DNA from: an uncultured Syntrophomonadaceae bacterium
GTDB lineage: Bacteria > Bacillota > Dethiobacteria > DTU022
Length of the DNA stretch: 64,000 bases
Assembly (NCBI GenBank): GCA_964506505.1
Contig: CAZDKY010000003.1
Coordinates: forward strand, 44,673-108,672
Direction of reading: 5' to 3'
Below are positions 1 through 13,812 of the stretch, piece by piece. Numbering within the stretch: position 1 is the stretch's first letter; every line of letters begins with the position of its first letter. The position numbers and the translations under genes are program-made. The notes beneath the pieces were generated by a model. It searched no databases and was not told where the DNA came from. It worked only from the letters and a program-made list of their open reading frames with translations.

Positions 1-1192
1 TGGTTTCAAGAGGGTTTAGTGGACAGCCCCTGTCGAAAAGATAGGAAATGATCATCGCCAGGGCATTTTTTTCCATGATTATCGCCGCCGCCAGGGTGTC
101 ACCTTCCGAAGGGCCACAGCACAGAGCACCGCCGCCTGCCAGCAGAACAGCACTGCGTTTTTTCAACAACCAGGCGATCTGCCGGGACACCTTCATGGTA
201 GATTCTGCCGGATCATTCTTTACCAGAGGAACATTTTCCCCTATGATCTGGGCAAAATCATCAATCATGGGGTACATTTTCTCGCCAGTCCGGGAAATAG
301 CGAGAACGTTAGGAGAAAGCACGTGCATGATAGCCTTTACGGTAGGGTTGAAGCGGTAAACAGCGTGGTGAACGGATAAAACGGGATCTAATTTTCCCTC
401 AGTCCATTCTCTAAAATCCCGTTCAAGATTGATCAGTACGGGGCGACCATCTCCTGATGACAAGGGCTTGTCGTTCTCAACAGTAGAGGGAAAAATGAAA
501 CCATCATCTTCCCTTTTACTGCTGTAAAATCTGCAGGGCTCCTGGCAGCTATAATCATTCCCCTTGCTTGATTTCCGGGTAATATAATAATTACGCAATG
601 ACAGCCAATCGGCAGAATCCGACTGGCTGATCTTCCTGTACTGTTTCAGTATGTAATTGGCACAGATCTCTTCCAGCCTTTCAGCAACCCGAAATGCTTC
701 TTCACTGTCAACACCAAGGCAAAGAGCCCCGTGAGCAGTCATAATGTAAGCTTTCCCTTTCGAACGGGACAAAGTGGTGGCAACATTTTCAGACAACTTT
801 TTACTGCCCGGCATTCCATAGGGAATTGACAGGACCCTGTCACCGATCAAAGAAGTATTTTCAACCCCTTCAATCTCGATGGCAGTCTGCAGGGGACTAA
901 GAGCCGAAGCATAATACTGGTGAGTATGAACGATGAAATTAATATCCCGACGCTGCCTGTAAACTGCGGCATGAACTCCCTTTTCCGAAGATGGTTCTAC
1001 GTTGCCCTCATAGCTCAGATCATCAAGGTTCATAACCACGATATCTTCCGAGGTCAACTTTTCATAAGGGCGTCCACTGGGAGTAATGGCAAAAAGGGTA
1101 TCACTCAACCGGCAGCTAACATTACCCCATGTCCGGGCAATTAACCCTTCTTCCACCAATCGCTTTCCAGCCTTCACTACCATTTCTTTTGC
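1..1192 (-). CDS. Class II aldolase/adducin family protein with two tandem aldolase-like domains. The gene is partial: its 3' end lies beyond the window start.
   Basis: I translated the minus strand by hand from the ATG at 1192: MVVKAGKRLVEEGLIARTWGNVSCRLSDTLFAITPSGRPYEK... continuing past position 1 with no stop codon. The GNVS motif and overall sequence resemble the fuculose-phosphate aldolase / MtnB family. A second aldolase-like region follows (..HHAVYRFNP..KAIMHVLSP..). The ORF track missed this gene because it runs off the window edge. The + strand ORFs 48..359 and 920..1144 are shadows of it. Confidence 0.7.
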
Positions 1193-1289
1193 TCTTCTAT
1201 TGTCCAAAGACCTGTCACCTTCTTTTTTTTGTCTGCAAATAAGTTGATGCGATCAAGGCCGCCCGGAGAAAGAACCAGTCCAGCTCTAT

Positions 1290-1324
1290 GAAGTTTTTTG
1301 AAATAATTAAACCGGGCCAATTAA
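1290..1324 (-). terminator. Rho-independent terminator downstream of the ylbF-like gene
   Basis: Inverted repeat ccgggcc/ggcccgg at 1302-1324. On the minus strand it is followed by a T/A-rich run. Confidence 0.5.
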
Positions 1325-1369
1325 AACGGCCCGGCAATAAGTTAATAAGTTAATACACAGGGTAGCTGT

Positions 1370-1714
1370 TTATTCTTCTTTTTCTTGTTCCGGGTTGATA
1401 CCGTCACTAATGGCCTTGTTAACATCTTGCATAAGCTGATCAAAATTGTTGCGGGCCCGGGCATAGGCCTGGATGGTCAAATTGGCATCCATTTTACCTT
1501 TCGCCGAGTTGAATTCATCGATCTGCTCCTGGTTTGGCTCCACTCCCGATTGCTGAGAAAACTGAACTTGCTGCTGTAATTTTTGGATTTTTTCAATTAG
1601 CTGACCGGCTTCGGGATCGCCTTTCACATTTTCAGTGGTTCTGTTCAATTCATTAAATTCGTCGGTTTTACGGATTTCAGAACCAAGTTCTTTTGCTTTT
1701 ACAAATATATCCAC
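1370..1714 (-). CDS. YlbF/YmcA family protein (UPF0342, competence/biofilm regulatory family)
   Basis: A 114-aa helical, Q/E-rich protein resembling the YlbF/YheA family. It starts with GTG and has an AAGGAGGA ribosome-binding site 6 nt upstream. Confidence 0.65.
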   Translation of the reverse strand: MDIFVKAKELGSEIRKTDEFNELNRTTENVKGDPEAGQLIEKIQKLQQQVQFSQQSGVEPNQEQIDEFNSAKGKMDANLTIQAYARARNNFDQLMQDVNKAISDGINPEQEKEE

Positions 1715-1812
1715 AAAAAATCCTCCTTATTTGGGTATGAATTAATGCCTTCTTGGTTCAGAACAGAAATTCCTTTAAAAACCGTCAATTTTTTATTTAG
1801 GCCGGTATTCCT

Positions 1813-3246
1813 TTACTGAATGGTAACGGCAAACCTTGAACCGTGGGGATTGACACAAATATCACATTTTTTGGCATAACCAGCAGCGCTGTAACCGGTC
1901 ATTCCACCTGCAAGATGACTAATATCTTTAAAACCATGCTGCTTTAGAATGCTTGCTGCAAGACCGGAGCGAAAACCGGTGCTGCAGATCAGTATCATGG
2001 GCAGATCGGGGTCAAGTTCCCTGTACCGGATCCGGAGATCGGGGACCGGGATATTGATCGCCCCTTCAATATGACTGTCGTTATATTCGAGGGGGGTACG
2101 GATGTCTATTAGTGCTGTCGGATTATTTCCTGTGACCAGAGCATGTAATTTTTCAGTCGAAATCAACTGCACCGATTCAGTTTCCAGGCCGGACATTACC
2201 CAGGGGGGCATGCCTCCGGCAAGGCAGCCCTTGACCCGATCCATGCCTACTCTGCGCAGCCAGAGGGCTGCTAATACTGTTTCATTGTAGTTGTCGCCAA
2301 CCAGGTATATGTCCCTATCCGTCGGTAAGACCCAGCCACCGAATGTGGGGAAATTCCCCCGAAGTTCAATATTGTATGATCCCCCAATGTTCATTCCGCC
2401 ATAAGCGGAGTAACTGCGGATATCAACTACCACGGCTTCCGAATCAGCAATCGCTTCCTTGAATTCTTGCGGCTTCAACTCTTCAAGGGGCGCAAAGGAT
2501 GAAAGCAGTCTCGGCCCGTGGCGGTTTATATCACTGCAGCGAAGGAAATGATCCGGTGCAGGCGGCATATTTTCAGTAAGCGAACGAATGAATTCCTCCC
2601 TGACCTTAATCTGCAAGGCAGGGTTATAGAGTTTTTCATAACCAAGGGTTGACAGATGTTTGGCCCCGATTGACCTGCCACAGAGAGAGCCTGCACCGTG
2701 AGCAGGGTATATTTCGCAGTGATCAGGCAGCTTCAGAAGTTTATTAAAAAGGCTGTCATAAAGTTTGCCCGCCAGTTCTTCCGCTTTATTCGGAAAGATA
2801 TCAGGTCTCCCAACATCACCGACAAAAATAAGATCACCGACAAATATACCGACAGGCTCCCTACCCCGGGAAAGATCGGTAACTGTGTAAGATACGTGTT
2901 CCGGGGTATGCCCGGGCGTTTCAATGACCTCGAGACGCATATCTTCAAGTTTGATGATGTCTCCTTCGGAAACAGGCTTATGCTGAAAGGTACACTCTGC
3001 CGCCAGAGGCGCATAGATGTCCGCTCCACTTCTGTCGGCAAGATCTATATGCCCAGAAACAAAATCGGCATGAAGGTGGGTAAGAATAATCATGGTGATT
3101 TTAACGCCCCGCCTGCGCGCCTCCTCGATGTAAATATCAACATCCCGCTGTGGATCAATTACCGCACAGCTTCGGCTGCCGATGATCATGTAAGAACTGT
3201 GAGCGATTTTGTCAGTAAAAATATGTTTAATCAGCACAGGGCACAC
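1813..3246 (-). CDS. MBL-fold metallo-hydrolase fused to two rhodanese domains (CstB-like persulfide dioxygenase / sulfurtransferase)
   Basis: HLHADFVSGH is an HxHxDH metal-binding motif. The C-terminal rhodanese domain carries the active-site loop CSTGFRSG. The gene's 5' end overlaps the stop of the upstream yloV ORF by 16 bp. Confidence 0.75.
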   Translation of the reverse strand: MCPVLIKHIFTDKIAHSSYMIIGSRSCAVIDPQRDVDIYIEEARRRGVKITMIILTHLHADFVSGHIDLADRSGADIYAPLAAECTFQHKPVSEGDIIKLEDMRLEVIETPGHTPEHVSYTVTDLSRGREPVGIFVGDLIFVGDVGRPDIFPNKAEELAGKLYDSLFNKLLKLPDHCEIYPAHGAGSLCGRSIGAKHLSTLGYEKLYNPALQIKVREEFIRSLTENMPPAPDHFLRCSDINRHGPRLLSSFAPLEELKPQEFKEAIADSEAVVVDIRSYSAYGGMNIGGSYNIELRGNFPTFGGWVLPTDRDIYLVGDNYNETVLAALWLRRVGMDRVKGCLAGGMPPWVMSGLETESVQLISTEKLHALVTGNNPTALIDIRTPLEYNDSHIEGAINIPVPDLRIRYRELDPDLPMILICSTGFRSGLAASILKQHGFKDISHLAGGMTGYSAAGYAKKCDICVNPHGSRFAVTIQ

Positions 3247-5042
3247 TCTTCCTTCCCAGTGTCAGAGACTGTGCAAATAGCTACAGCTCCACGGCCGGTA
3301 TTTATTGCAACTGCCGCTGATACCTCCGTTACATATTCCGGTTCTTTTTGAAGCAAACCGGCAATGACCTGGCTACAGTTTTCTGCCAGTTCCGCAGCTC
3401 CGGCATGAACAATGCAGTAGCTGTCGATCGGCTTTCCATTGTTGATCTTTTTAACAGCGTTAACAATTTTATTGAGGCTTGCCCTCTGGTTTACAGCAAC
3501 GGCAAAAAGCTTATCCCGGCCCTCTTCATCCAGGGTAACAAGAGGCTTGAGCTTAAAAAGGGATAATACAAAATTCTGCAGAAAGCTGAACCTGCCGCTG
3601 CGGGCAAGATATTTGAAATCAGTCATGCTGACAAACATTTTGACCCGGGATAGAAGGTTTTCAATGCTATCAACGATCTCTTCATAACTGCAACCCCGGG
3701 CAGCCATGCGGGCTGCTTTAAGAACCAGCAGGCCGTGAGCACCCGATTTTGTGTGCGAGTTGATTACATTAACAACCGTTCCATCATCGCGTAATTTCTC
3801 GGCTACTTTCTCAAATACCTCTCCGGTAGCGCTGAATTCTCTTGAAGCCGAGATCATGATCACTGATTGATAGTGTTCAGCAATAAAAGAAAGCTGATGA
3901 TAAACGGCATTAAAGGAAGGCGGGGAATAAGAAAGGTATTCAGATGCCCGACCGGCCAGATCATAAATTTGTTCAGGTTTCACTGATACTTTATCCAGGA
4001 ATGCGGATCCGTCTATGTTGATATTGATCGGGACAATGTTAATCTGATGTTCATTGATTAATTCAGGGGACAGATCTGCCGCAGAATCGGTCACCACCGC
4101 CACTTCGGCCAATCTTTTATGAACTACCTGGTACTGCCGGAGCATATCGTCAACTTTCTGGTTGGTTACGGTGCCGTACTCAAACAGACTTAAGAAAAAT
4201 TTTTCAGGCTCGTTAGTATGCATGTGAACCTTTGTTTTCTCAGATGTGCCGGCAATAATTAACGAATCCCCGAGGCTCTCCAGCGATTGTCTGAGTTGGG
4301 TGTGGTCAATAGCTGTCCCAGCTACCAATCCTTCAGAACAATAACGGTACTCAATGTTTCCCCCCATGACTGCTGCCGGTTCCGCCACTGCCGCATCAGG
4401 AGCTTCTCCATACAGCAGCGTTTTTAAATCTCCGGTGTTAATAAGTTTGGCCACTCCCTCGAGGAAAAGAACGAAACCCTGTGCACCGGCATCGACCACC
4501 GAGGCTTCTTTCAACACTTTCAATTTATCCGGTGTTTCTTTCAGGGACTGCCGGGCCCGTTCAACCGATTTAAGGAATACCCTAACAAAATCATTGGTTT
4601 CTTTAGCCAACCGTTGAAATGTATCTGCCCAATCATGAAGAACAGTGAGCATGGTCCCTTCAACAGGGTTAGAAACGGCATTATAAGCATAAGGCACCGC
4701 CTTTTGGACCGATTGGGCAAAAGACCTTGTCGAAAGGCGCTTATGATGACCTGTTTCCCTGGAAATACCGTTTATAAACGAGGCTATGATGATCCCCGAG
4801 TTCCCTCTTGCCCCATTGAGTGAAGCATCGGCAATAGAACGAAGCGTATCGCTGATGCTCCGGGAAGGTTTCACTGAATCAACAATATGGTTAAAAGTTG
4901 CCGCGAGATTGTTACCGGTGTCGCTGTCATATACCGGAAATACATTTATTTTGTTCAGCCTTGCCTTATTCAGAACGACTTCCCTGGCTCCAGCCAGAAA
5001 AGCATAATATATTCTATCGCCATTTATATAGCTGATGGACAT
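3231..5042 (-). CDS. yloV: DAK2-domain fusion protein YloV (DhaL-like N-terminus plus DegV-like C-terminus)
   Basis: 603 aa. An N-terminal Dak2 (DhaL) phosphatase-like domain is followed by a fatty-acid-binding DegV-like domain. Confidence 0.7.
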   Translation of the reverse strand: MSISYINGDRIYYAFLAGAREVVLNKARLNKINVFPVYDSDTGNNLAATFNHIVDSVKPSRSISDTLRSIADASLNGARGNSGIIIASFINGISRETGHHKRLSTRSFAQSVQKAVPYAYNAVSNPVEGTMLTVLHDWADTFQRLAKETNDFVRVFLKSVERARQSLKETPDKLKVLKEASVVDAGAQGFVLFLEGVAKLINTGDLKTLLYGEAPDAAVAEPAAVMGGNIEYRYCSEGLVAGTAIDHTQLRQSLESLGDSLIIAGTSEKTKVHMHTNEPEKFFLSLFEYGTVTNQKVDDMLRQYQVVHKRLAEVAVVTDSAADLSPELINEHQINIVPININIDGSAFLDKVSVKPEQIYDLAGRASEYLSYSPPSFNAVYHQLSFIAEHYQSVIMISASREFSATGEVFEKVAEKLRDDGTVVNVINSHTKSGAHGLLVLKAARMAARGCSYEEIVDSIENLLSRVKMFVSMTDFKYLARSGRFSFLQNFVLSLFKLKPLVTLDEEGRDKLFAVAVNQRASLNKIVNAVKKINNGKPIDSYCIVHAGAAELAENCSQVIAGLLQKEPEYVTEVSAAVAINTGRGAVAICTVSDTGKEECALC

Positions 5043-5192
5043 CTATTTCACCTGCACTTCCATACAATATTTTTAAACATACATGAATGTAAGATTCTTT
5101 ATTAAATAGCTTTAGTCCTGCTTTTTCCCGGATCATTCCTGCTGCCTGATAATCATCGCCCGGTTAACCGCTCCGGTCAATTAATCGTCCTT

Positions 5193-6665
5193 TTATTTTG
5201 AAGCCAGAACATTACGCCAGAGACGTCTCGATTCCGGCAGTAAAATAACAAGGACAGTATACACCTCCAGGCGACCGACTACCATCATAATGGAGAGCAT
5301 AACTCTGCCCACGGGAGGAATGACCTGATAGTTATGGAGAGGACCCACCCCGGCCAGGCCGGGCCCGACATTGCCAATAGTGGCCGCAACAGCAGAAAGA
5401 GAGGTTTCGAAATCCAAACCAAGCCCATTTAAAATCAGGGTGGCAAAAGCAGTCAGGGCAAAGTAAAGAAAACCGAAACCCATAATCGGGCGCAGGACTT
5501 CTTCAGATAAATTTTGTTCACCCAGCTTTATAGAAGAGATCGCCGATGGATGGACCAGGTTCGAAAGCTCACGGATGGAAAATTTAAGCATCAGCATGAC
5601 GCGAACCTGCTTTATTGCCCCGCCGGTTGAACCTCCGCAGGCTCCAATAAACATCAACCCGAGGAGCAAAACACGGGAAAAATGATGCCAGGCGTCAAAA
5701 TTGGTGGTGGCATATCCGGTCGTGGTTATTATTGAAACAACCTGGAATGATGCCAACCGCAGAGCTGTAAATATTTCTCCCTCGTACAGGTTGTAGATAT
5801 CCGCAGTGATCAGAATAATCGACAGGGCTGTAACTGCTGTATAAAAGCGCAGCTCAGGGTTCCTGTGAATGCTGAAATCCCCCCGGATTAGACGGAAATA
5901 AAGAACGAAGTTGGCCCCGGCAAGAAACATAAACGACGTAACCACTATTTCCGCGGCAGGGTTATTAAAAGCAGCTATACTGGCGGTGTAAGTGGAAAAC
6001 CCTCCTGTTGGCATTGTCGTAAAAGAATGAGTGAGAGCATCGAAAAAATCGAGCCCGCAGATCATTAACAGGATTATTTCAGACAGGGTCAGAGCTACAT
6101 AAATCAACCAGAGCCGGCGTGCTGTTTCCACCACGCGTGGTACAAGGCGTTCGGCGATGGGGCCGGGCAATTCTGCTTTAAACATAGTCATACTGCGAAA
6201 ACCAAAACGGGGCAGGATGGCCAGGAAAAGAACGATAATCCCCATGCCGCCGAGCCACTGCGTGATAGCGCGCCAGAGAAGCAGCCCCCGCGGTATATTT
6301 TCAATATCATCCAGCAGGGTTGCCCCTGTTGTGGTAAACCCGGAAACCGCTTCAAAATATGCGTCAATAAAACTCCCATTAAAGAGTCCAAAAAAGTGAA
6401 ACGGCAGAGCACCAAAAATACCGGCAACAAACCAGGCCAGTGCTACCAGGGTAAAATTTTCCACCAGACTTAATTCTTTACGGGTAGCACCCGAAAAAAG
6501 CTTAAACAAAAAAAAGCCGACTCCGGCTGTTAACAGAATCGCTTTCAAAAAAGCCATTCGGTCCGGCCCCTGCTCGCCGAGAGACCAAAAAGAGGCGATA
6601 ATCATCATCAGGGCCAGAAAGAGAAGCATGATCCCCAGCAGGTAAAAAATACGAAAACGGCTCAT
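5193..6665 (-). CDS. trkH: TrkH/KtrB family potassium uptake membrane protein
   Basis: 490-aa polytopic membrane protein with repeated selectivity-filter-like TTTG(Y) motifs. It sits next to trkA. Confidence 0.85.
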   Translation of the reverse strand: MSRFRIFYLLGIMLLFLALMMIIASFWSLGEQGPDRMAFLKAILLTAGVGFFLFKLFSGATRKELSLVENFTLVALAWFVAGIFGALPFHFFGLFNGSFIDAYFEAVSGFTTTGATLLDDIENIPRGLLLWRAITQWLGGMGIIVLFLAILPRFGFRSMTMFKAELPGPIAERLVPRVVETARRLWLIYVALTLSEIILLMICGLDFFDALTHSFTTMPTGGFSTYTASIAAFNNPAAEIVVTSFMFLAGANFVLYFRLIRGDFSIHRNPELRFYTAVTALSIILITADIYNLYEGEIFTALRLASFQVVSIITTTGYATTNFDAWHHFSRVLLLGLMFIGACGGSTGGAIKQVRVMLMLKFSIRELSNLVHPSAISSIKLGEQNLSEEVLRPIMGFGFLYFALTAFATLILNGLGLDFETSLSAVAATIGNVGPGLAGVGPLHNYQVIPPVGRVMLSIMMVVGRLEVYTVLVILLPESRRLWRNVLASK

Positions 6666-6716
6666 CTAAATCTCCACGCTCCGATCGGATCCAATTCATC
6701 AATTTGCAGGCAATTG

Positions 6717-8120
6717 TTATTCCGTGCCAGGGATGTCAACTGCTCGATGGTTACGGACTCCCCTGGTAGCGAGCGGAGCAAAATAGCGATCCAGTTTAAC
6801 GCTGACCTGGGGAACAGCAAAAATAACCAGGTGGTCTCCGGGCTGTAACTTTGTCTTTCCGCTGGGAATAATCAGTTCACCATCGCGGACAATGGAACCG
6901 ATCAGCATCCCTCGCGGAAGACGGGCTTCGGCTATTTTTTTATTAGCCACTTTGGCCGACTCAGGCAAAACCAGCTCAACGATCTCCGCCTTTTCATTCT
7001 GCAGGATTGAAAGAGCAACAACTTCTTCCCGCCTTGTGAAACGCACAATCTGGGCCGCTGCCAGTAAACGGGGATTGATTACACTGTCAATGCCGAGGGT
7101 ACTGTATACGGAAACGTACTGAGGTTTTCTCACTTCACAAATAATCTTTTCAACACCAAACTGCCTGGCCATTAAAGCTGCAACGATATTGGAACGATCG
7201 TCGCCGGTTGCAGCAATCACTGCATCGGCTGTCTCCAGATCCTCTTCCTTGAGCATGGCGATCTCGGTAACATCACCCTGTAAAACAAGGGTTTTCCTTA
7301 ATAACCTGCTGAGCTCTTCACACCGTTCAACTTTTTTCTCAATTATTTTCACAAAGAAAGGCTGGTTGCTCTCTTCCAGCATTTGCGCCAGCATGAGGGA
7401 AATCATCCCTCCGCCCAGGATGGTTACCTGGCGGATTAAGCAGCTTTCGTGATGCAGCAGGGTGCACAGATTTTTCAATCCTCCACTGCTGCCGAGCAGG
7501 TAAATTTTATCCCCTGGATTAATAATGTCACTCCCACCGGGGACAACGAACTCACCTTTGTTATTGCTAATCCCAACAATAATGGCCTCCTGATCTTGCA
7601 TCTGTATATTTTTTATAGGCACACCTGCTATGCCAGCTTCCTTTCCTACGGTAACTCCGAGCATCATCACTTTACCCCGGTTAAAATATTCTATTTCGCT
7701 GGCTGCCGGGAAATGAAGCATCCTCGAAATCTCCATTGCGGCCACTTTTTCGGGGTTAATAACAAGGTCAATGCCGAGCTGCTTTGGTGTTAACACTGAA
7801 GTCTGATCGACATATCCTGAATTGCGAATGCGGCAAACAGTCAGTGGAACATCATATTTTTTGGCCAGCATACAGGCAATAATATTAATCTCATCATGCT
7901 GGGTCACCGCGATCAGCATATCGGCATTTTTAATATCCGCTTTTTCCAGGACAGAAGCGTTTGCTCCATTATCCACTATGACCATCACATCGAGGGCTTC
8001 CTGAAAGCGGCGGGCTTTGCTTTCGCTTTTTTCGATAACCACAACATCCTGGTGTTTCTCAGATAGATTGCGGCCCAGCTCATAACCAACACCGCCACCG
8101 CCTACAACAATTATACGCAT
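6717..8120 (-). CDS. trkA: Trk system potassium uptake protein TrkA (two RCK/NAD-binding domains)
   Basis: MRIIVVGGGGVGYELGRNL Rossmann motif. The second RCK repeat begins ILGGGMISL. Confidence 0.9.
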   Translation of the reverse strand: MRIIVVGGGGVGYELGRNLSEKHQDVVVIEKSESKARRFQEALDVMVIVDNGANASVLEKADIKNADMLIAVTQHDEINIIACMLAKKYDVPLTVCRIRNSGYVDQTSVLTPKQLGIDLVINPEKVAAMEISRMLHFPAASEIEYFNRGKVMMLGVTVGKEAGIAGVPIKNIQMQDQEAIIVGISNNKGEFVVPGGSDIINPGDKIYLLGSSGGLKNLCTLLHHESCLIRQVTILGGGMISLMLAQMLEESNQPFFVKIIEKKVERCEELSRLLRKTLVLQGDVTEIAMLKEEDLETADAVIAATGDDRSNIVAALMARQFGVEKIICEVRKPQYVSVYSTLGIDSVINPRLLAAAQIVRFTRREEVVALSILQNEKAEIVELVLPESAKVANKKIAEARLPRGMLIGSIVRDGELIIPSGKTKLQPGDHLVIFAVPQVSVKLDRYFAPLATRGVRNHRAVDIPGTE

Positions 8121-8338
8121 TCCATCAAATCCACCTTCCCAGAGCAGCAGAAACAGATATTCTCATTCATATTAACCGAGAAAATATCCCAATGCAAATA
8201 TTATTGACAGCCGAAACCTGTTTTCATTCTTCAATCTGAAAGGGACGATTAAAAACCGTCCCTTTTCGATTCGATCAATTCGGCTACATTATATAATAGA
8301 GGATCCTTTTTGTTAAGGTTTTTTTATTAAATATCAAA

Positions 8339-8362
8339 ATCAATAAATTACAGTTGTCAATA
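8339..8362. repeat. Direct repeat copy 1 (atcaataaattacagttgtcaata)
   Basis: A 24-bp element that is almost identical to the one at 8453-8477. Confidence 0.7.
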
Positions 8363-8372
8363 ACATGTTGAA

Positions 8373-8433
8373 ATGTCACTTGACCCGGCTTTCCATAGGT
8401 GACATATTATCATGATAATTAATAAGGTGACAT
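8373..8433. promoter_or_regulatory. Cluster of GTGACAT half-sites (atgtcac ... aggtgacat ... aggtgacat)
   Basis: Inverted pair ATGTCAC (8373-8379) / GTGACAT (8399-8405), plus a second direct AGGTGACAT copy at 8425-8433. Candidate repressor-binding half-sites upstream of the MMPL operon promoter. Confidence 0.35.
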
Positions 8434-8452
8434 TATCACGTAATAACCACAC

Positions 8453-8477
8453 ATCAATAAATTACAGTTTGACAATA
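8453..8477. repeat. Direct repeat copy 2 (atcaataaattacagtttgacaata), overlapping the -35 box
   Basis: Near-identical copy of 8339-8362. It contains the TTGACA -35 hexamer. Confidence 0.7.
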
Positions 8478-8497
8478 CTTCGGCAGAGCATTATAAT
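8469..8497 (+). promoter_or_regulatory. Consensus sigma-A-type promoter for the MMPL operon
   Basis: TTGACA (8469-8474), 17-nt spacer, TATAAT (8492-8497). The MMPL start codon at 8580 lies about 83 nt downstream. Confidence 0.6.
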
Positions 8498-8499
8498 GC

Positions 8500-8537
8500 A
8501 AACAAGTAATTAAAACAGTTGTTTAAATTACTTGTTT
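8500..8537. promoter_or_regulatory. 38-bp near-perfect palindrome, a candidate TetR operator or 5'-UTR hairpin
   Basis: Left arm aaacaagtaattaaaac, centre agtt, right arm gtttaaattacttgttt. The 17-bp arms differ at one position. It sits immediately downstream of the -10 box and upstream of the ribosome-binding site. Confidence 0.5.
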
Positions 8538-8579
8538 AAAATAAACGTTAGATCCATAAATGTGCCGGAGAAGTAACCC

Positions 8580-10664
8580 ATGCAGAAGTTGAGCCGTCTT
8601 ATCGTTAAATACAGGAAATTAATAATCGCCGGCTACATACTTTTACTGATCCCGGCTATTATCGGCTACCTGACCACCGGAGTTAATTACGACCTGCTTT
8701 CCTATATGCCGGACAACCTGAATTCAAGGCAGGGGGAAGAGGTCCTGGAAGAAGAATTTTCTCTATCCGGACTCGGTTTGATGATGGTCAGGGATAAAAA
8801 AAATTTTGAAATTGAGCTTTTAATCAAAGAGCTGGAAAATATTGAGGGTATCAATAAAATTTCCTGGCTTGGCAGTTACAGTGATATATATGTGCCCAAA
8901 GAATTTATTGATCCTGTAATTAGGGAGAGATTTATAACAGATGACACTGTATTGCTGCAAATTCAGTTTTCAGAAAACGCCCGCAGTGGAGAAACTGTTG
9001 CCGCCGTTCTGGAAATAACCGATATTACAGAAGCGGATGATGATCTTTATTTCGGCGGCGAACCGGCTATTTTAACCGATATGCAGATGGCAATCGATGA
9101 TGAGATGCTCCAGTATACAAGCGTTGCCGTAATTATGATCCTGTTGGTCTTGACCATGTCAACTTCTCTTTATCTGGATCCGATCCTGTTCCTTGCCGCT
9201 GTTGGAGTAGCCATTGTCATCAACATGGGAAGCAACTTTTTCCAGGGAGAGATCTCCTTCCTGACCGCTTCTATTGCCGCGGTGATGCAGCTCGGCATAT
9301 CACTGGACTACGCCATATTTCTGATGCACCGGTTTGAAGAAGAAAAGGCAAAAGGGATTGGCATTGAAGAAGCGATGGTCAATACAATCAGTAAAACTGC
9401 TGTTACCATCGCCTCAAGCGCCCTGACTACAATTGGCGGTTTTGTCGCCCTGATGGTGATGGAAAATGGAATCGGCGGAGACATGGGCCTGGTCCTGGGT
9501 AAAGGGATTGTAATCAGCCTGATCGTCACCCTGACATTGCTGCCCGGCCTGATCCTGACATTTCACCCTTTCAGCAGCCGCTACCGACACCGGGTCCTTT
9601 TACCATCTTTTCAAACAACGGCGAAGCTGCTGCCTAAATTCCGATCGGTGATATTGATTGTATTTATCATTATTGCTGTGCCGGCCTATCTTGCTCAGGA
9701 TAATGTAGAATACTATTATTCTAATGTTCATTATTTACCCCGCAATTCAAAAGCTGCAGCAGCTACTGACGAAATCATGGAAGAATACGGTGCTGTAGAT
9801 GTAGCCTATTTAATTACTCCCGACGAAGGCCGGAAAAGGGAGAGCGATCTTGTTGACCTGCTGAGCAAAGTTGAACACGTTGATTCTGTAGTTTCTGTTT
9901 CAGAACAGGTTGACCCCGCTGTGCCGGATATGATGATCCCCGAAGAGATGATCAGCGAGTTCCAGGGGGGAGGCTACCGCAACATTATGGTATTCCTGTC
10001 ACCTGAGGCAGAAGAAAAAGAAATTTTCATTACCATCGATCGCATCAGAGAAATAGCCGGCTCCCTGCACGATGAATATTATGTTGCAGGCCAACCTGCC
10101 CAGACGAGGGACATGGCAACCCTGTCCAAAGTTGATGCCCGCAATGTAGCCCTCTTTTCTGTTATTGCCATAGGCCTGATCATTGCAATCAGCTTCCGAT
10201 CATTGTCACTTCCCCTTCTGCTGGTTCTGGCTGTTAAACTGGCTATCTGGATCAATCTCAGTTTTTTATATTACCAGGGAGAACCGGTATCCTCACTGAC
10301 CCCTATCATAATCGGGTCCATCCAGCTGGGGGCAACTGTTGATTACGCCATCCTGTTTACGCTGAGATATCGCGAAAACCTGGGCATAATGGGGGAACGA
10401 ATAAAAGCAGCCGGACAGACCATAAAGGATACCGGCCGATCTATCCTCACCAGCGCCCTGATCCTTTTTGCAGCAACCTTCAGTATCTCCCTGATCGCCG
10501 GCATAAAAACAACCAGGGAAATGACTTTACTCATCGGCCGGGGGGCATTGATCAGCATGGTAGTTATATTTTCCTTGCTGCCTGCTCTGCTGATAATTTT
10601 TGAAAAGGTGATCGAGCGTACTACAATCGGCTGGCCGGTTTGCTCTGACAGAGAGAAAAAGTAA
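8580..10664 (+). CDS. MMPL-family (RND superfamily) membrane transporter, YdfJ-like
   Basis: 694 aa with two approximately 6-TM bundles, each followed by an extracytoplasmic domain, the typical MMPL topology. GGAGAAG ribosome-binding site. Confidence 0.8.
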   Translation: MQKLSRLIVKYRKLIIAGYILLLIPAIIGYLTTGVNYDLLSYMPDNLNSRQGEEVLEEEFSLSGLGLMMVRDKKNFEIELLIKELENIEGINKISWLGSYSDIYVPKEFIDPVIRERFITDDTVLLQIQFSENARSGETVAAVLEITDITEADDDLYFGGEPAILTDMQMAIDDEMLQYTSVAVIMILLVLTMSTSLYLDPILFLAAVGVAIVINMGSNFFQGEISFLTASIAAVMQLGISLDYAIFLMHRFEEEKAKGIGIEEAMVNTISKTAVTIASSALTTIGGFVALMVMENGIGGDMGLVLGKGIVISLIVTLTLLPGLILTFHPFSSRYRHRVLLPSFQTTAKLLPKFRSVILIVFIIIAVPAYLAQDNVEYYYSNVHYLPRNSKAAAATDEIMEEYGAVDVAYLITPDEGRKRESDLVDLLSKVEHVDSVVSVSEQVDPAVPDMMIPEEMISEFQGGGYRNIMVFLSPEAEEKEIFITIDRIREIAGSLHDEYYVAGQPAQTRDMATLSKVDARNVALFSVIAIGLIIAISFRSLSLPLLLVLAVKLAIWINLSFLYYQGEPVSSLTPIIIGSIQLGATVDYAILFTLRYRENLGIMGERIKAAGQTIKDTGRSILTSALILFAATFSISLIAGIKTTREMTLLIGRGALISMVVIFSLLPALLIIFEKVIERTTIGWPVCSDREKK

Positions 10665-10686
10665 AAGTTTTAATGGAGGGGTTCTT

Positions 10687-12663
10687 ATGCTGCGTAAAAT
10701 AATTGGCCCACTGGTAATTATGCTGATAGCTATGCTGGCTATCGGCGCAGGGGGTTACTATCTCGAAGAAGGGTTTCAAACAACCGGTGCGGGTAGCTAT
10801 ACCCCGGTTTTTGAATTATCACCGGAAGAAGATGAATCAACAGGACAGGATGAATCGGCAAAAACCTATGAAACACCGGCTTATAAAGACGAAACAGTAT
10901 ACGTGCTTCTCGATCACGACGGATCGGTTCTGGAACAGCAGATTGTCAATCGGCTTTACGGGCAGCACGATCCCGAAGCTCCCCTGGTTGCTGATTACGG
11001 AACTTATCTTTCTGTGGAGAACATGACATCTTCCGCCGAGCCGGTAATAGAGGAAAACCGCCTCCTCTGGAAAAGTGAACTGCTCAAGATCGACGAGCTC
11101 TATTATGAGGGAACCCTCGATAAAGAACTGCCCGTTGATATCAATATCTCCTATTACCTGGATGGTGAACCGGTAGCTCCTTCTTCCCTGGGAGGACAAG
11201 GCGGAAGGCTGGAAATTGTCATTCAGGCAGAAAATAATCTCCTCTATGATGGGACAGTGAGTTATCATGATCATGAAGGCACACTGGTCACAGTGGAAGA
11301 AGAAAATTATGTTCCTCTGCTTGTCCAGGGAACAATGGATGTTGATTTAAATCGCTTTTCAAATATTGACACCGGAGAAGGACTTGATATAGTCATTGGC
11401 CAGAGCGCCAGTATCAATTTCATGATTTTCCCTTACCCTGAAGCTGAAATAAAGATCAGCATGGACGGCGATGACATTGAGCTGGGCAGCATTTCTTTCA
11501 TTGTTACCCCCCAGTTGCCCCCAATGAACGAGATCGATATAGAGGATGAACTCGTCGAGATGCTGGAAGGGTTTTCAATGCTTTCCGGAGGACTGGCTGA
11601 ACTGGAAGGGGGAGCCGATCTTTTACTGCAGGGGATGAGGCGTTTTGAGCAGGAAAGCGATCAAATGACAGGCATGACAGCTGAATGGAGCGCTCTTATT
11701 GACGAATACAGCAAACAAAAATCCACTTATGACAAACTGATTACAGACTTCGCCGCGGGGGATTTGACCGAGGTCGTTTCATCCATGCAGGATCTGCTCG
11801 GTGAAATAGAAAATCTCCCTGATCCGGGGACAATCACTGACGATATTGCCATCGCGGCCGACAGTTCGGCAGAACTAAAGAATCATATTGCCGTTCTCAA
11901 CAACAGCCTGGCCGCTGCTGAAGATACAGATACACGGATCAGGTCGGAAGCGGAACGCCTCGTTGCTGAAAACGAACCAGGGACGGGCTTACATGAACTG
12001 GGAATGCTCATCCTGTCGAGAGAAAAAACTCTCGACACCACTTTTGCAGAACGGCAAATTATTGATCGAAATATCGGTGAACTGGATGATGCCCTGCAAT
12101 CGCTGGAAAGGTTCTGGCAGGAAGATTATCTTCCGGAAGTAGCTTTCCTGGAAGAATTAAGTAGTGTCACCGACAATGAATGGTATGAAGCAGGAAAATA
12201 TCTCGAATTTGTAGCGGTAGAACTGGACAGCTTTGCTGATTACTACAGAGAAATTGACGACGTGATCTTAGAAGCGGAGGGCATGCTGGGGGATATATCC
12301 AGACTGCCCGGAGCATTAAAAGAGTTAACATATGGACAAACCAGGCTCACGGAAGGCCTGAAAGAACTGCGGGAAAGCGGAATCATGGCCATGGAAAAAG
12401 GATTAATTGAAGGAGTTAACGAAGCCAAATACGGCGCAGCCAAACTGGAACTGATGGAAAAGCTGGCTGATGATTATCGATCCTACGCCGACAATGTACA
12501 TAACCGGCACAGTAAGGTCCAGTTTATTATGCAGACTGAGAAAATTACCGCACCTGCGGAAGAGGATCCGGAAGAAGAAAAAGAAGATACTCTACCGGAA
12601 CCGGAGTACTTCTGGGCAATTGAATTCTGGAATAAAATGATCCATCTTTTCGACTTTCAATAA
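10687..12663 (+). CDS. Membrane-anchored extracytoplasmic protein with X-X-X-Leu-X-X-Gly heptad repeats (like the YhgE/Pip N-terminal domain)
   Basis: One N-terminal TM helix, an acidic linker, then a long helical region carrying FSMLSGG-LAELEGG-ADLLLQG and ALKELTYG-QTRLTEG-LKELRESG heptads. There is no C-terminal TM bundle. GGAGGGG ribosome-binding site. The gene is 22 nt downstream of the MMPL stop and 16 nt upstream of the TetR start. Confidence 0.65.
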   Translation: MLRKIIGPLVIMLIAMLAIGAGGYYLEEGFQTTGAGSYTPVFELSPEEDESTGQDESAKTYETPAYKDETVYVLLDHDGSVLEQQIVNRLYGQHDPEAPLVADYGTYLSVENMTSSAEPVIEENRLLWKSELLKIDELYYEGTLDKELPVDINISYYLDGEPVAPSSLGGQGGRLEIVIQAENNLLYDGTVSYHDHEGTLVTVEEENYVPLLVQGTMDVDLNRFSNIDTGEGLDIVIGQSASINFMIFPYPEAEIKISMDGDDIELGSISFIVTPQLPPMNEIDIEDELVEMLEGFSMLSGGLAELEGGADLLLQGMRRFEQESDQMTGMTAEWSALIDEYSKQKSTYDKLITDFAAGDLTEVVSSMQDLLGEIENLPDPGTITDDIAIAADSSAELKNHIAVLNNSLAAAEDTDTRIRSEAERLVAENEPGTGLHELGMLILSREKTLDTTFAERQIIDRNIGELDDALQSLERFWQEDYLPEVAFLEELSSVTDNEWYEAGKYLEFVAVELDSFADYYREIDDVILEAEGMLGDISRLPGALKELTYGQTRLTEGLKELRESGIMAMEKGLIEGVNEAKYGAAKLELMEKLADDYRSYADNVHNRHSKVQFIMQTEKITAPAEEDPEEEKEDTLPEPEYFWAIEFWNKMIHLFDFQ

Positions 12664-12679
12664 AACGAGGTGATAAACA

Positions 12680-13261
12680 GTGGCGAAAGAGAAGACCGAC
12701 ACCCGATCCAAGATCCTTGAAGCCGCGGCCGAGATAATCGGCAGGGAAAGAAACCTGAACTTTACAATCAGGGAAGTGGCCAACCGGGCCAAAGTGAACA
12801 TTGCTTCAATAAATTATTACTTCCGTTCGAAAGAAAATTTGCTCGGTGAGATAGAAATGCTGCTCATGGAAAGAACCCGCCTGATTTATTCCTACCTGAG
12901 CGATGAATCTCTCAGCCCGCGTGACAGACTGATCGGCTGGGCAGACGAACTTATTAAACACCTGATTGAGTACCCCGGCATTATTTATCTTATTGGGACC
13001 AAAATCCTGGAAAGAGAGAGCACTTTTATCGGCCCGTATCTGGATTTACTGGAAACAGATCTCGCCCCGCTGGTGAAAAATATTACCGGCCTTAACCAGA
13101 AAAACTTAATTAACTTTAAAGTCCTCCAGCTTATTTCAGGTGTGGTTTATCCGGTTTTAATCTTTTCCAGCGCCGAAAATCACGGGGATATTGATATTAG
13201 AAAAAGTAATATGCGCCTTGCATATATAAATTCACTGATTGACAGCATCAAAGCGGCCTGA
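12680..13261 (+). CDS. TetR/AcrR family transcriptional regulator
   Basis: N-terminal HTH region SKILEAAAEIIGRERNLNFTIREVANRAKVNIASINYYFRSKENLL. GTG start with an ACGAGGTGA ribosome-binding site. Last gene of the MMPL operon. Confidence 0.85.
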   Translation: MAKEKTDTRSKILEAAAEIIGRERNLNFTIREVANRAKVNIASINYYFRSKENLLGEIEMLLMERTRLIYSYLSDESLSPRDRLIGWADELIKHLIEYPGIIYLIGTKILERESTFIGPYLDLLETDLAPLVKNITGLNQKNLINFKVLQLISGVVYPVLIFSSAENHGDIDIRKSNMRLAYINSLIDSIKAA

Positions 13262-13278
13262 TGTCTTTTGCGTAGCTA

Positions 13279-13470
13279 AAAAACCGCGTTCGTATTTTGG
13301 CTTTGCCGCACAGGGTAAAAACGGAGATTTGCGTTTGTGAAATAGTGGATGCGCTCGAAGAGTGTCAGTACAAAGTTTCCCGCAACCTGAAGGTGCTTCA
13401 GTAAGCCGGCCTGATTGTCAGCCGAAAAAAAGGCAAATGCAATTATTACCGCTTCAGTGAGACGCACGTT
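13279..13470 (+). pseudogene. Disrupted ArsR/SmtB-family metalloregulator remnant
   Basis: My hand translation reads ..NRVRILALPHRVKTEICVCEIVDALEECQYKVSRNLKVLQ*AGLIVSRKKGKCNYYRF... This contains the ArsR HTH and CVC metal-site signature. There is no start codon and an in-frame TAA falls at 13402-13404. Confidence 0.5.
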
Positions 13471-13812
13471 CCTTTCCAGAAAAAATTACTGCAAGCTATC
13501 CGTTATATTTCTTCAGATACAATAAACGAGGATTTCATACACCTGCGTAAACACCTTTTCATCCGGGTAAATAATGAATTCGTGATTGGAACCAGCAAGA
13601 ACAATGATCAATTGTAAGCAGGTTATCAACTGTAACAACAGCAAAAAAGTTGGAGCATAAGAGTTAAATCAAGATTTTAAAAATACGGATCACCGAACGG
13701 GTTACAGTCTTCTATATTATTTTCATCGGTTGTGAAACTGGAAAGGAGGTAAATCCGATGATTAGTATAAGTATGGTCTGGCAAAGAGCTACCTGGAAGA
13801 ACTCTGCCAGTA

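Follow-up and report, generated by a model that had tools for sequence, protein, structure and literature searches.

How RND/MMPL pumps move hydrophobic cargo past the cytoplasmic membrane in bacteria that lack an outer membrane is poorly understood, and the coiled-coil tube of mycobacteria was first described in 2025. In Mycobacterium tuberculosis, the accessory protein MmpS5, which comprises one transmembrane (TM) segment and an Ig-like domain, and the transporter MmpL5 form a 3:3 complex, in which the coiled-coil insert of MmpL5 (residues 494–688) was modelled as a 13-nm cargo tube in the trimer, and MmpS5 is required for activity as well as for MmpL5 trimerisation (PMC12501195). FarE-FarR of Staphylococcus aureus is, in the description at hand, induced by antimicrobial fatty acids and protects against them. 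Systems that combine an RND/MMPL pump, an accessory protein and a local repressor are known, and an operon of this kind was analyzed here in a 64,000-nt stretch (hereafter the window) of contig CAZDKY010000003.1 (positions 44,673 to 108,672, forward strand) from an uncultured Syntrophomonadaceae bacterium. It encodes an MMPL transporter, an ectodomain protein of a family without a name (hereafter the partner) and a TetR-family regulator (Table 1). The comparison of related loci directly supports the view that the partner gene is inseparable from the MMPL gene across Bacillota.

Related loci were gathered either via the partner protein alone or via the MMPL alone, at least 35 of 46 being non-redundant. 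In every one of the 46 loci with upstream sequence, a gene for an MMPL protein of about 700 aa is located immediately upstream of the partner gene on the same strand, and the two genes often overlap. This synteny persists down to partner identities of 24–29%, with the other flanking genes being unrelated. The hosts include Clostridium disporicum, C. hominis, C. paraputrificum, Acutalibacter, Acetatifactor, Bianquea, Faecalibaculum and Caldicoprobacter, as well as one metagenome-assembled genome labelled Actinomycetota. Pairwise identities of the MMPL and partner proteins are closely correlated across 33 pairs (r = 0.95, Mantel p = 0.001), the partner being the faster evolving of the two (mean identity 0.29 vs 0.44 for the MMPL). 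Moreover, one lineage encodes a natural fusion of 1,241 aa (P0159; positions 4001–7726 of locus L053 and 582–4307 of locus L054), of which residues 1–691 correspond to a whole MMPL. A basic linker and a TM segment lead from there to the beta domain and heptads, and the chain closes with the returning strand and the W..F..LF C-terminal helix of the partner. The fusion is identical in independent assemblies from ENA, Logan and JGI and is preceded by a TetR gene. Because of the synteny in 46 of 46 loci and the fusion, a chance adjacency of the two genes was ruled out. The genomic evidence for an obligate two-protein machine is strong, and the two proteins presumably contact each other physically. 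An earlier note, made from the window alone, had proposed that the MMPL serves as membrane engine for an uncharacterised ectodomain protein and had suggested a survey of the gene pair for conserved synteny; the outcome of this survey together with the fusion fits the proposal, which as judged from the genomic comparison is strongly supported.

Both halves of the first gene product match PF03176, and its hydropathy profile shows about 12 TM segments and two extracytoplasmic loops. As these loops comprise only about 150–160 aa each, the protein has no room for a coiled-coil insert and can be regarded as a minimal MMPL. TIGR00833 and TIGR00921 also match it, however below their cutoffs. The translation keeps Asp-Tyr motifs in 'ISLDYAIF' and 'ATVDYAIL'; going by what is known of MmpL3, we take 'LDYAIF' and 'VDYAIL' to be the Asp-Tyr proton-relay pairs of TM4 and TM10. 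The sequence supports the conclusion that the MMPL retains the motifs which MmpL-type RND transporters use for proton coupling. Its nearest relatives among solved structures are MmpL4 and MmpL5 (E-values of 3e-17 to 1e-11), followed by HpnN and MmpL3, and its homologs are named only 'MMPL family transporter' or 'efflux RND transporter permease subunit'. Membership of the first gene product in the MMPL/RND superfamily, as assumed in the earlier note, is well founded on these observations.

The partner is 100% identical to AVO34_02655 of Firmicutes bacterium ML8_F2 (unclassified Bacillota). Scans against Pfam and NCBIfam yielded no match even at E ≤ 1, and a search of PDB sequences with the partner profile returned generic coiled coils only, i.e., designed bundles and chemoreceptors. 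Searches of the PDB by phmmer with heptad-rich relatives produced nothing useful, neither EsaA nor MmpL. When 1.84 billion cluster representatives were searched with the profile, 7,008 clusters were assigned to the partner family at E ≤ 1e-3, 4,417 at E ≤ 1e-10 and 1,648 at E ≤ 1e-30, with the beta domain and the first heptads (profile positions 55–330) as common core. An hhalign comparison with a relative from Faecalibaculum rodentium gave a probability of 99.6% over the beta domain. In databases, members of the family are called 'hypothetical protein', 'uncharacterized protein' or 'putative membrane protein'. Two distant relatives, P0044 and P0055, carry the precomputed Pfam accessions PF28175 and PF28231, and these entries might already cover part of the family.

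Hydropathy analysis of the partner identified a single hydrophobic segment (residues 5–23) and no C-terminal TM bundle, in agreement with the single N-terminal anchor that had been described for this protein before. A monomer model was generated with AlphaFold2 (AF2) from an alignment of 36 family sequences (alignment A1), with a mean pLDDT of 80 and a pTM of 0.54. In this model, the anchor helix is connected via a poorly ordered linker to an all-beta ectodomain, the most conserved part across the partner family, which is followed by a long antiparallel helical hairpin. The ascending arm of the hairpin (residues 285–428) is kinked and turns at a conserved ENEPG motif (428–433), and the descending arm forms a single helix of 163 residues (434–596; about 24 nm), so that at 1.5 Å per residue the hairpin would measure about 21–24 nm. 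The hairpin contains the X-X-X-Leu-X-X-Gly heptads already recognized at first reading, four of them in register in the ascending arm and further ones in the descending arm; in the latter stretch, alignment A1 shows no variation at G565 and hardly any at G557 and G572. Chain order and strand assignment suggest that the strand beyond the hairpin rejoins the beta domain. With S609, F613 and I614 invariant, this strand is also the most conserved segment of the protein, and an acidic linker connects it to a C-terminal amphipathic helix, the motif of which is kept even in the distant fusion P0159 ('NIWERFLDLFRK'). Since both ends of the hairpin join the beta domain, which itself begins only about 30 residues past the anchor, the beta domain is probably membrane-proximal and the hairpin tip distal.

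Table 1. Positions of the operon, its control elements and the predicted parts of the partner within the window.
Feature	Position	Strand	Description
Sigma-70-type promoter	8469..8497	+	TTGACA-17 nt-TATAAT, 12/12; sole perfect match on both strands of the 64-kb window
Candidate TetR operator	8500..8537	.	18+18 nt inverted repeat, 94% complementary, 2-nt spacer; starts 3 nt past the -10
MMPL-family (RND superfamily) transporter	8580..10664	+	694 aa; PF03176, 4.9e-56, 2 stretches
MMPL-partner protein, unnamed family	10687..12663	+	658 aa; annotated 'hypothetical protein', AVO34_02655
Partner: N-terminal membrane anchor	10690..10773	+	residues 2-29; AF2 helix 2-29, hydropathy peak 5-23
Partner: all-beta ectodomain	10870..11508	+	residues 62-274; mu-homology-domain-like (predicted), pLDDT about 90
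Partner: antiparallel helical hairpin	11539..12474	+	residues 285-596; AF2
Partner: four in-register X-X-X-Leu-X-X-Gly heptads	11551..11634	+	residues 289-316; xxx[LIVM]xxG pattern, at 289, 296, 303, 310
Partner: second heptad stretch, descending arm	12316..12402	+	residues 544-572; heptads at 544, 551, 566-570
Partner: returning beta strand 'VQFIMQT'	12511..12537	+	residues 609-617; AF2 strand, pLDDT about 90
Partner: C-terminal amphipathic helix	12610..12648	+	residues 642-654; W-x3-(F/L)W-x2-(F/I)-x2-LF; AF2, after acidic linker
TetR-family regulator	12680..13261	+	193 aa; PF00440, 6.3e-10; GTG start codon

Conservation within the partner family, measured as mean top-residue frequency per region, amounted to 0.66 for the beta domain, 0.57 and 0.66 for the two hairpin bases, 0.73 for the returning strand and 0.35 for the hairpin middle, which also contains indels. 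The concentration of conserved positions in the anchor-adjacent module and the variability of the hairpin middle agree with the domain division given by the model. One subclade of alignment A1 (P0026–P0036, e.g., L004 6001–7719) comprises shorter partners of 535–573 aa, in which the hairpin has lost about 90–100 residues, among them the ENEPG tip, and Pro/Glu/Trp-rich low-complexity inserts (PEEWPEPGEWPEGWPGE...) stand in place of the hairpin middle.

The three genes are separated by gaps of 22 nt (MMPL-partner) and 16 nt (partner-TetR), and each start is preceded by a Shine-Dalgarno-like sequence (GGAG, GGAGG or GAGGTG). The promoter in front of them has no perfect counterpart in any of 100 shuffled versions of the window, i.e., none is expected by chance, and an alignment of 12 orthologous upstream regions showed that TTGAC of the -35 is invariant and the -10 conserved. 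The view of the earlier note that the genes form an operon with individual ribosome-binding sites behind a perfect promoter was borne out in all these points, and it is directly supported that one consensus promoter drives the MMPL, partner and TetR genes. Since a scan of the whole window against Rfam matched no family, neither leader, i.e., that of the operon or that of the divergent trkA gene upstream, appears to contain a riboswitch. The product of the third gene was confirmed as a TetR-family regulator by its TetR_N domain and its length of about 190 aa, with a palindrome, the candidate operator, at its own promoter; its nearest solved relative is HlyIIR (1.4e-7), which provides no clue to the ligand. 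As judged by HMM, 33 of 47 loci have a TetR gene next to the pair, and Pfam annotation adds two more; the gene is located downstream of the partner gene in the clade of the window and upstream of the MMPL gene in other clades.

The palindrome abutting the -10 contains the core ATTAAAACA-N2-4-TGTTT(T)AAAT. A strict scan for inverted repeats in the orthologous upstream regions found almost nothing, and it was the alignment that revealed the conserved operator: in 12 loci, with partners that are only 40–91% identical, the blocks AAACA, TTAAAACA, TGTTTTAA and TGTTT follow the -10 at a constant position (aligned blocks AAACA-N5-(A/T)TT(A/T)AAACA-N2-4-TGTTT(T)AA...TGTTT). Half-sites of the form TAAAACA or TGTTTTA are present upstream of the MMPL gene in 17 of 25 sequences (the window and 24 loci, some of them redundant). 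As RNA, the palindrome would form a hairpin where the transcript is predicted to begin (-17.3 kcal/mol, z -3.4), and it could thus serve in stabilising the mRNA instead of binding TetR. We regard this as quite unlikely, since the blocks are conserved while the outer stem pairing is not (in L001, AAACAAACGATT faces AAATAAATGCTT), a pattern expected of a protein-binding site, although the two roles are not mutually exclusive. Conservation of the sequence across loci in the absence of conserved stem complementarity argues for an operator, and the palindrome is likely that of the TetR regulator. The layout would then be the classic one in which TetR keeps the efflux operon that encodes it repressed and a ligand relieves the block. 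A perfect 17-nt direct repeat, ATCAATAAATTACAGTT, occurs in two copies 114 nt apart (8339–8355 and 8453–8469), the second of which reaches into the -35 of the operon, and GTCAATAAC comes after the first copy; the repeat could represent a partial promoter duplication or a site for a second regulator. The coding region of the partner's beta domain includes, at 11366–11393, a promoter-like site matching 11/12 positions, TTGACA-16-TG-TATAGT, the -10 of which is extended; it could be an internal promoter or a product of chance.

The heptads had led the earlier note to place the partner with the YhgE/Pip phage-infection proteins and EsaA and to read the locus as a split version of the YhgE/Pip module. 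On this model, an MMPL would have taken the place of the ABC-2-type TM bundle of the ectodomain, and the complex would chiefly form a surface fibre or resemble a phage receptor. Several observations are in favor of this reading. YhgE/Pip and EsaA/YueB proteins likewise come from Firmicutes, are anchored at the N-terminus and extend into a long helical ectodomain of X-X-X-Leu-X-X-Gly heptads, a tblastn search with the helical part of the relative P0043 retrieved annotated YhgE/Pip genes (E down to 1e-25), and an hhalign comparison of alignment A1 with YhgE/Pip of Listeria aligned 107 helical residues (probability 77%, E 2e-5). TetR neighbors occur in YhgE/Pip loci as well: in Bacillus sp. N5-665 (L050), a TetR gene (1200–1796) directly precedes a genuine YhgE/Pip gene (2011–5214), which is in line with the adjacency the earlier note had described for this module. 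The heptad model TIGR03057 (curated cutoff 18.6 bits) matches 10 of 10 distant relatives above cutoff, with E-values down to 1e-38, and 11 of the 36 close relatives at E ≤ 10, mostly below cutoff, P0040 being clearly above it (1.8e-7, 31.1 bits) and P0013 exactly at it. These matches in close relatives fall on the equivalents of residues 289–316 of the partner in the window (P0010 295–315, P0013 292–312, P0019 289–311), which itself has no TIGR03057 match despite four plus two heptads recognized by pattern; its copy of the repeat is degenerate.

The likeness is, however, confined to the coiled coil. Neither the partner nor 45 relatives match TIGR03061 (pip_yhgE_Nterm), TIGR03062 (pip_yhgE_Cterm, the C-terminal multi-TM region) or TIGR03929 (EsaA/YueB of the type VIIb secretion system, T7SSb, with an arrow-shaped fold and a distal beta tip), the search with TIGR03061 having covered the partner at E ≤ 1, the family list of the 36 close relatives and 20 relatives scanned singly. 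By contrast, YhgE/Pip proteins used as controls matched all models, with E-values of 6.7e-66 (TIGR03061), 3.7e-65 (TIGR03062), 9.3e-49 (TIGR03057) and 4.7e-28 (TIGR03929) for the 927-aa protein of Listeria monocytogenes and of 7.4e-61, 6.2e-66, 3.9e-84 and 5.5e-21, respectively, for the 1,067-aa protein of Bacillus sp. N5-665. In addition, the beta domain did not align to the N-terminal domain of YhgE in the comparison with the Listeria protein, and in place of a multi-TM C-terminus the partner ends in an amphipathic helix. The domain order is opposite to that of EsaA, whose beta-sheet domain has been proposed as surface-exposed tip (10.1101/2020.08.17.254201), whereas the beta domain of the partner is adjacent to the anchor, with the hairpin pointing away from it. 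The partner is, moreover, always paired with an MMPL. We consider a split YhgE/Pip module very unlikely. The heptad ectodomain of the earlier note stands, its assignment to YhgE/Pip or EsaA does not: on the sequences compared, only the X-X-X-Leu-X-X-Gly coiled coil is common to the partner and these proteins. The observation as such is real and more general than its first interpretation, with the filing under YhgE/Pip being wrong at the level of the family.

With moderate confidence, we favor the interpretation that the locus encodes an envelope exporter of two proteins and is repressed by its own TetR, and that in the exporter the partner acts as extracytoplasmic stalk or conduit of the MMPL. 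The anchor, the beta domain, the base of the hairpin, the returning strand and the C-terminal helix of the partner would dock on the small extracytoplasmic domains of the MMPL, and the hairpin of about 21–24 nm would project into or through the peptidoglycan. The MMPL would extract a hydrophobic or amphiphilic cargo (a lipid, a fatty acid or a lipophilic toxin) from the membrane, the cargo would leave along the hairpin, and the same compound or its precursor might release TetR from the operator. Some weak similarities point in the same direction. In two close relatives, the hairpin has a weak match to the coiled-coil insert region of the actII MMPL model (profile positions 471–636 at E 6.6e-4 and 433–634 at E 0.029), the hairpin of YhgE/Pip from Bacillus sp. 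N5-665 (residues 410–554) matches the same insert (profile positions 490–650, E 8.7e-7), and among the relatives of the partner there are marginal matches to the helical regions of MCE and PqiB. These matches are suggestive at most, as coiled-coil composition alone can give such scores; that of YhgE/Pip hints at a heptad module that may be common to YhgE/Pip, actinobacterial MMPLs and the partner family.

Alternatively, the partner might be an assembly or stability factor in the manner of MmpS or TtfA, which holds the MMPL oligomer together or in place via its TM segment and beta domain, with the hairpin as a mere spacer or wall tether and the cargo being released at the membrane surface. Strict pairing, fusion and co-divergence would fit this equally well, the middle of the hairpin is variable and partly deletable, and MmpS5 is needed for the trimerisation of MmpL5 (PMC12501195). 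We nevertheless judge it unlikely, because the hairpin bases, the ENEPG motif at the tip and the glycines of the heptads are all conserved, because every sampled member, including those of 850–1,059 aa, keeps a long helical region, and because the MMPL lacks the coiled coil that its nearest solved relatives use in cis. A third possibility is mechanotransmission similar to FtsEX-EnvC/PcsB, where cycling of the MMPL would be relayed through the coiled coil to an extracellular enzyme or to wall remodelling. A marginal PcsB match in one relative is the point in its favor; on the other hand, Pfam and NCBIfam scans gave no sign of a domain that is an enzyme or binds one, the examined loci share no hydrolase gene in their vicinity, and control by TetR is typical of efflux or lipid systems, all of which makes this explanation highly improbable.

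Other observations weigh against an exporter with a stalk. Coiled-coil composition may account in part for the helical likeness to MMPL inserts, MCE and YhgE, and the heptads of the partner in the window lie below the detection of TIGR03057. The poorly conserved middle of the hairpin and its Pro-rich replacement in the short members fit a spacer better than a precise tube, and the structural support consists of a monomer model (pTM 0.54). TetR genes were not found beside eight distant loci with ample flanks, and as the flanking genes differ among loci, they give no clue to the substrate. A more far-reaching version of the exporter interpretation, which we put forward only tentatively and consider doubtful, is that of an unrecognised class of bipartite RND exporters distributed across Bacillota (gut Clostridia, Erysipelotrichales), in which the minimal MMPL oligomerises with its partner and the hairpins together build a tube of about 20 nm as a route for lipids or lipophiles through the peptidoglycan.

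The operon is flanked by divergently oriented trkA/trkH genes upstream and by a convergent ORF of 581 aa downstream, the counterpart of which in L001 carries Adenine_deam_C. Between the divergent promoters of trkA and the MMPL gene, at 8397–8446, there are two AGGTGACAT... repeats 28 nt apart, which look like candidate sites for another regulator; ATTATCATGATAAT, a perfect palindrome, is part of one repeat, and a palindrome of the form GTGA-N5-TCAC is part of the other. The leader of trkA, of about 160 nt, starts from an 11/12 promoter-like site on the minus strand (8316–8288) and contains a GC-rich hairpin (GGGACG...CGTCCC) followed by a T-run at 8233–8271, which may be an attenuator of the K+ uptake genes. 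The 550-nt spacer after the TetR gene (13262–13812) holds neither a convincing intrinsic terminator nor an intact gene. A stop-interrupted frame downstream of the TetR gene, which appeared ArsR-like by eye, was dropped after a Pfam scan had matched nothing.

Taken together, the pair probably moves greasy molecules out through a thick cell wall; the two proteins would do so as a complex, with the partner presumably serving as conduit and lipid-like compounds as likely substrates. Literature searches yielded no description of a module consisting of an MMPL and a heptad protein, the one on the YhgE neighborhood leading mainly to a lactococcal pilus locus without relation to it, and as far as the libraries and literature searched show, the partner family and the architecture of a stalk supplied in trans are undescribed. 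This matters since a very large family labelled hypothetical is genetically locked to an MMPL and would provide it with a much longer stalk in trans. Members of the family occur in cultivable Clostridium, Caldicoprobacter, Acutalibacter and Faecalibaculum, which makes the idea testable. Annotation should also improve if the X-X-X-Leu-X-X-Gly stalk is treated as a portable module and set apart from YhgE/Pip proper. Should the tube of about 20 nm exist, the heptad stalks of YhgE/Pip and EsaA would represent the same wall-crossing module on other engines.

Compared with known systems, the partner differs from adaptors of the AcrA/EmrA type, as Pfam and NCBIfam scans detected no lipoyl, beta-barrel or HlyD match in it and its beta domain is predicted to be mu-homology-like. 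FtsEX-EnvC/PcsB and MCE/PqiB have other engines, namely ABC or MCE rather than MMPL; EnvC and PcsB carry hydrolase-related domains, and MCE needles consist of homo-hexameric C-terminal helices. FarE-FarR resembles the operon in being a Firmicute RND-type pump under a TetR-family regulator and may serve as functional precedent for such a pump; the description at hand mentions no partner protein. The closest resemblance is to MmpS5-MmpL5 and MmpS4-MmpL4, which share with the operon a local repressor, a single-pass beta-sandwich accessory protein, an MMPL and an antiparallel hairpin stalk directed toward the wall (PMC12501195). The repressor is Rv0678 in mycobacteria and a TetR protein here, and the sampled relatives of the module come from Bacillota, which are mostly monoderm. 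MmpS proteins are of about 15 kDa, whereas the partner has 658 aa with anchor, beta domain and hairpin, is encoded downstream of the MMPL and has no match to MmpS in Pfam or NCBIfam; a functional analogy with MmpS may still hold. In mycobacteria the hairpin is an insert in MmpL5 itself, while here the MMPL is free of an insert and the partner encoded downstream carries a hairpin about twice as long. By analogy, the partner would thus equal MmpS plus the coiled-coil domain of MmpL5, supplied in trans to a minimal MMPL, and if its hairpins do form a tube of about 20 nm, the module would be the trans-encoded counterpart of MmpS together with the coiled-coil tube of MmpL4/5.

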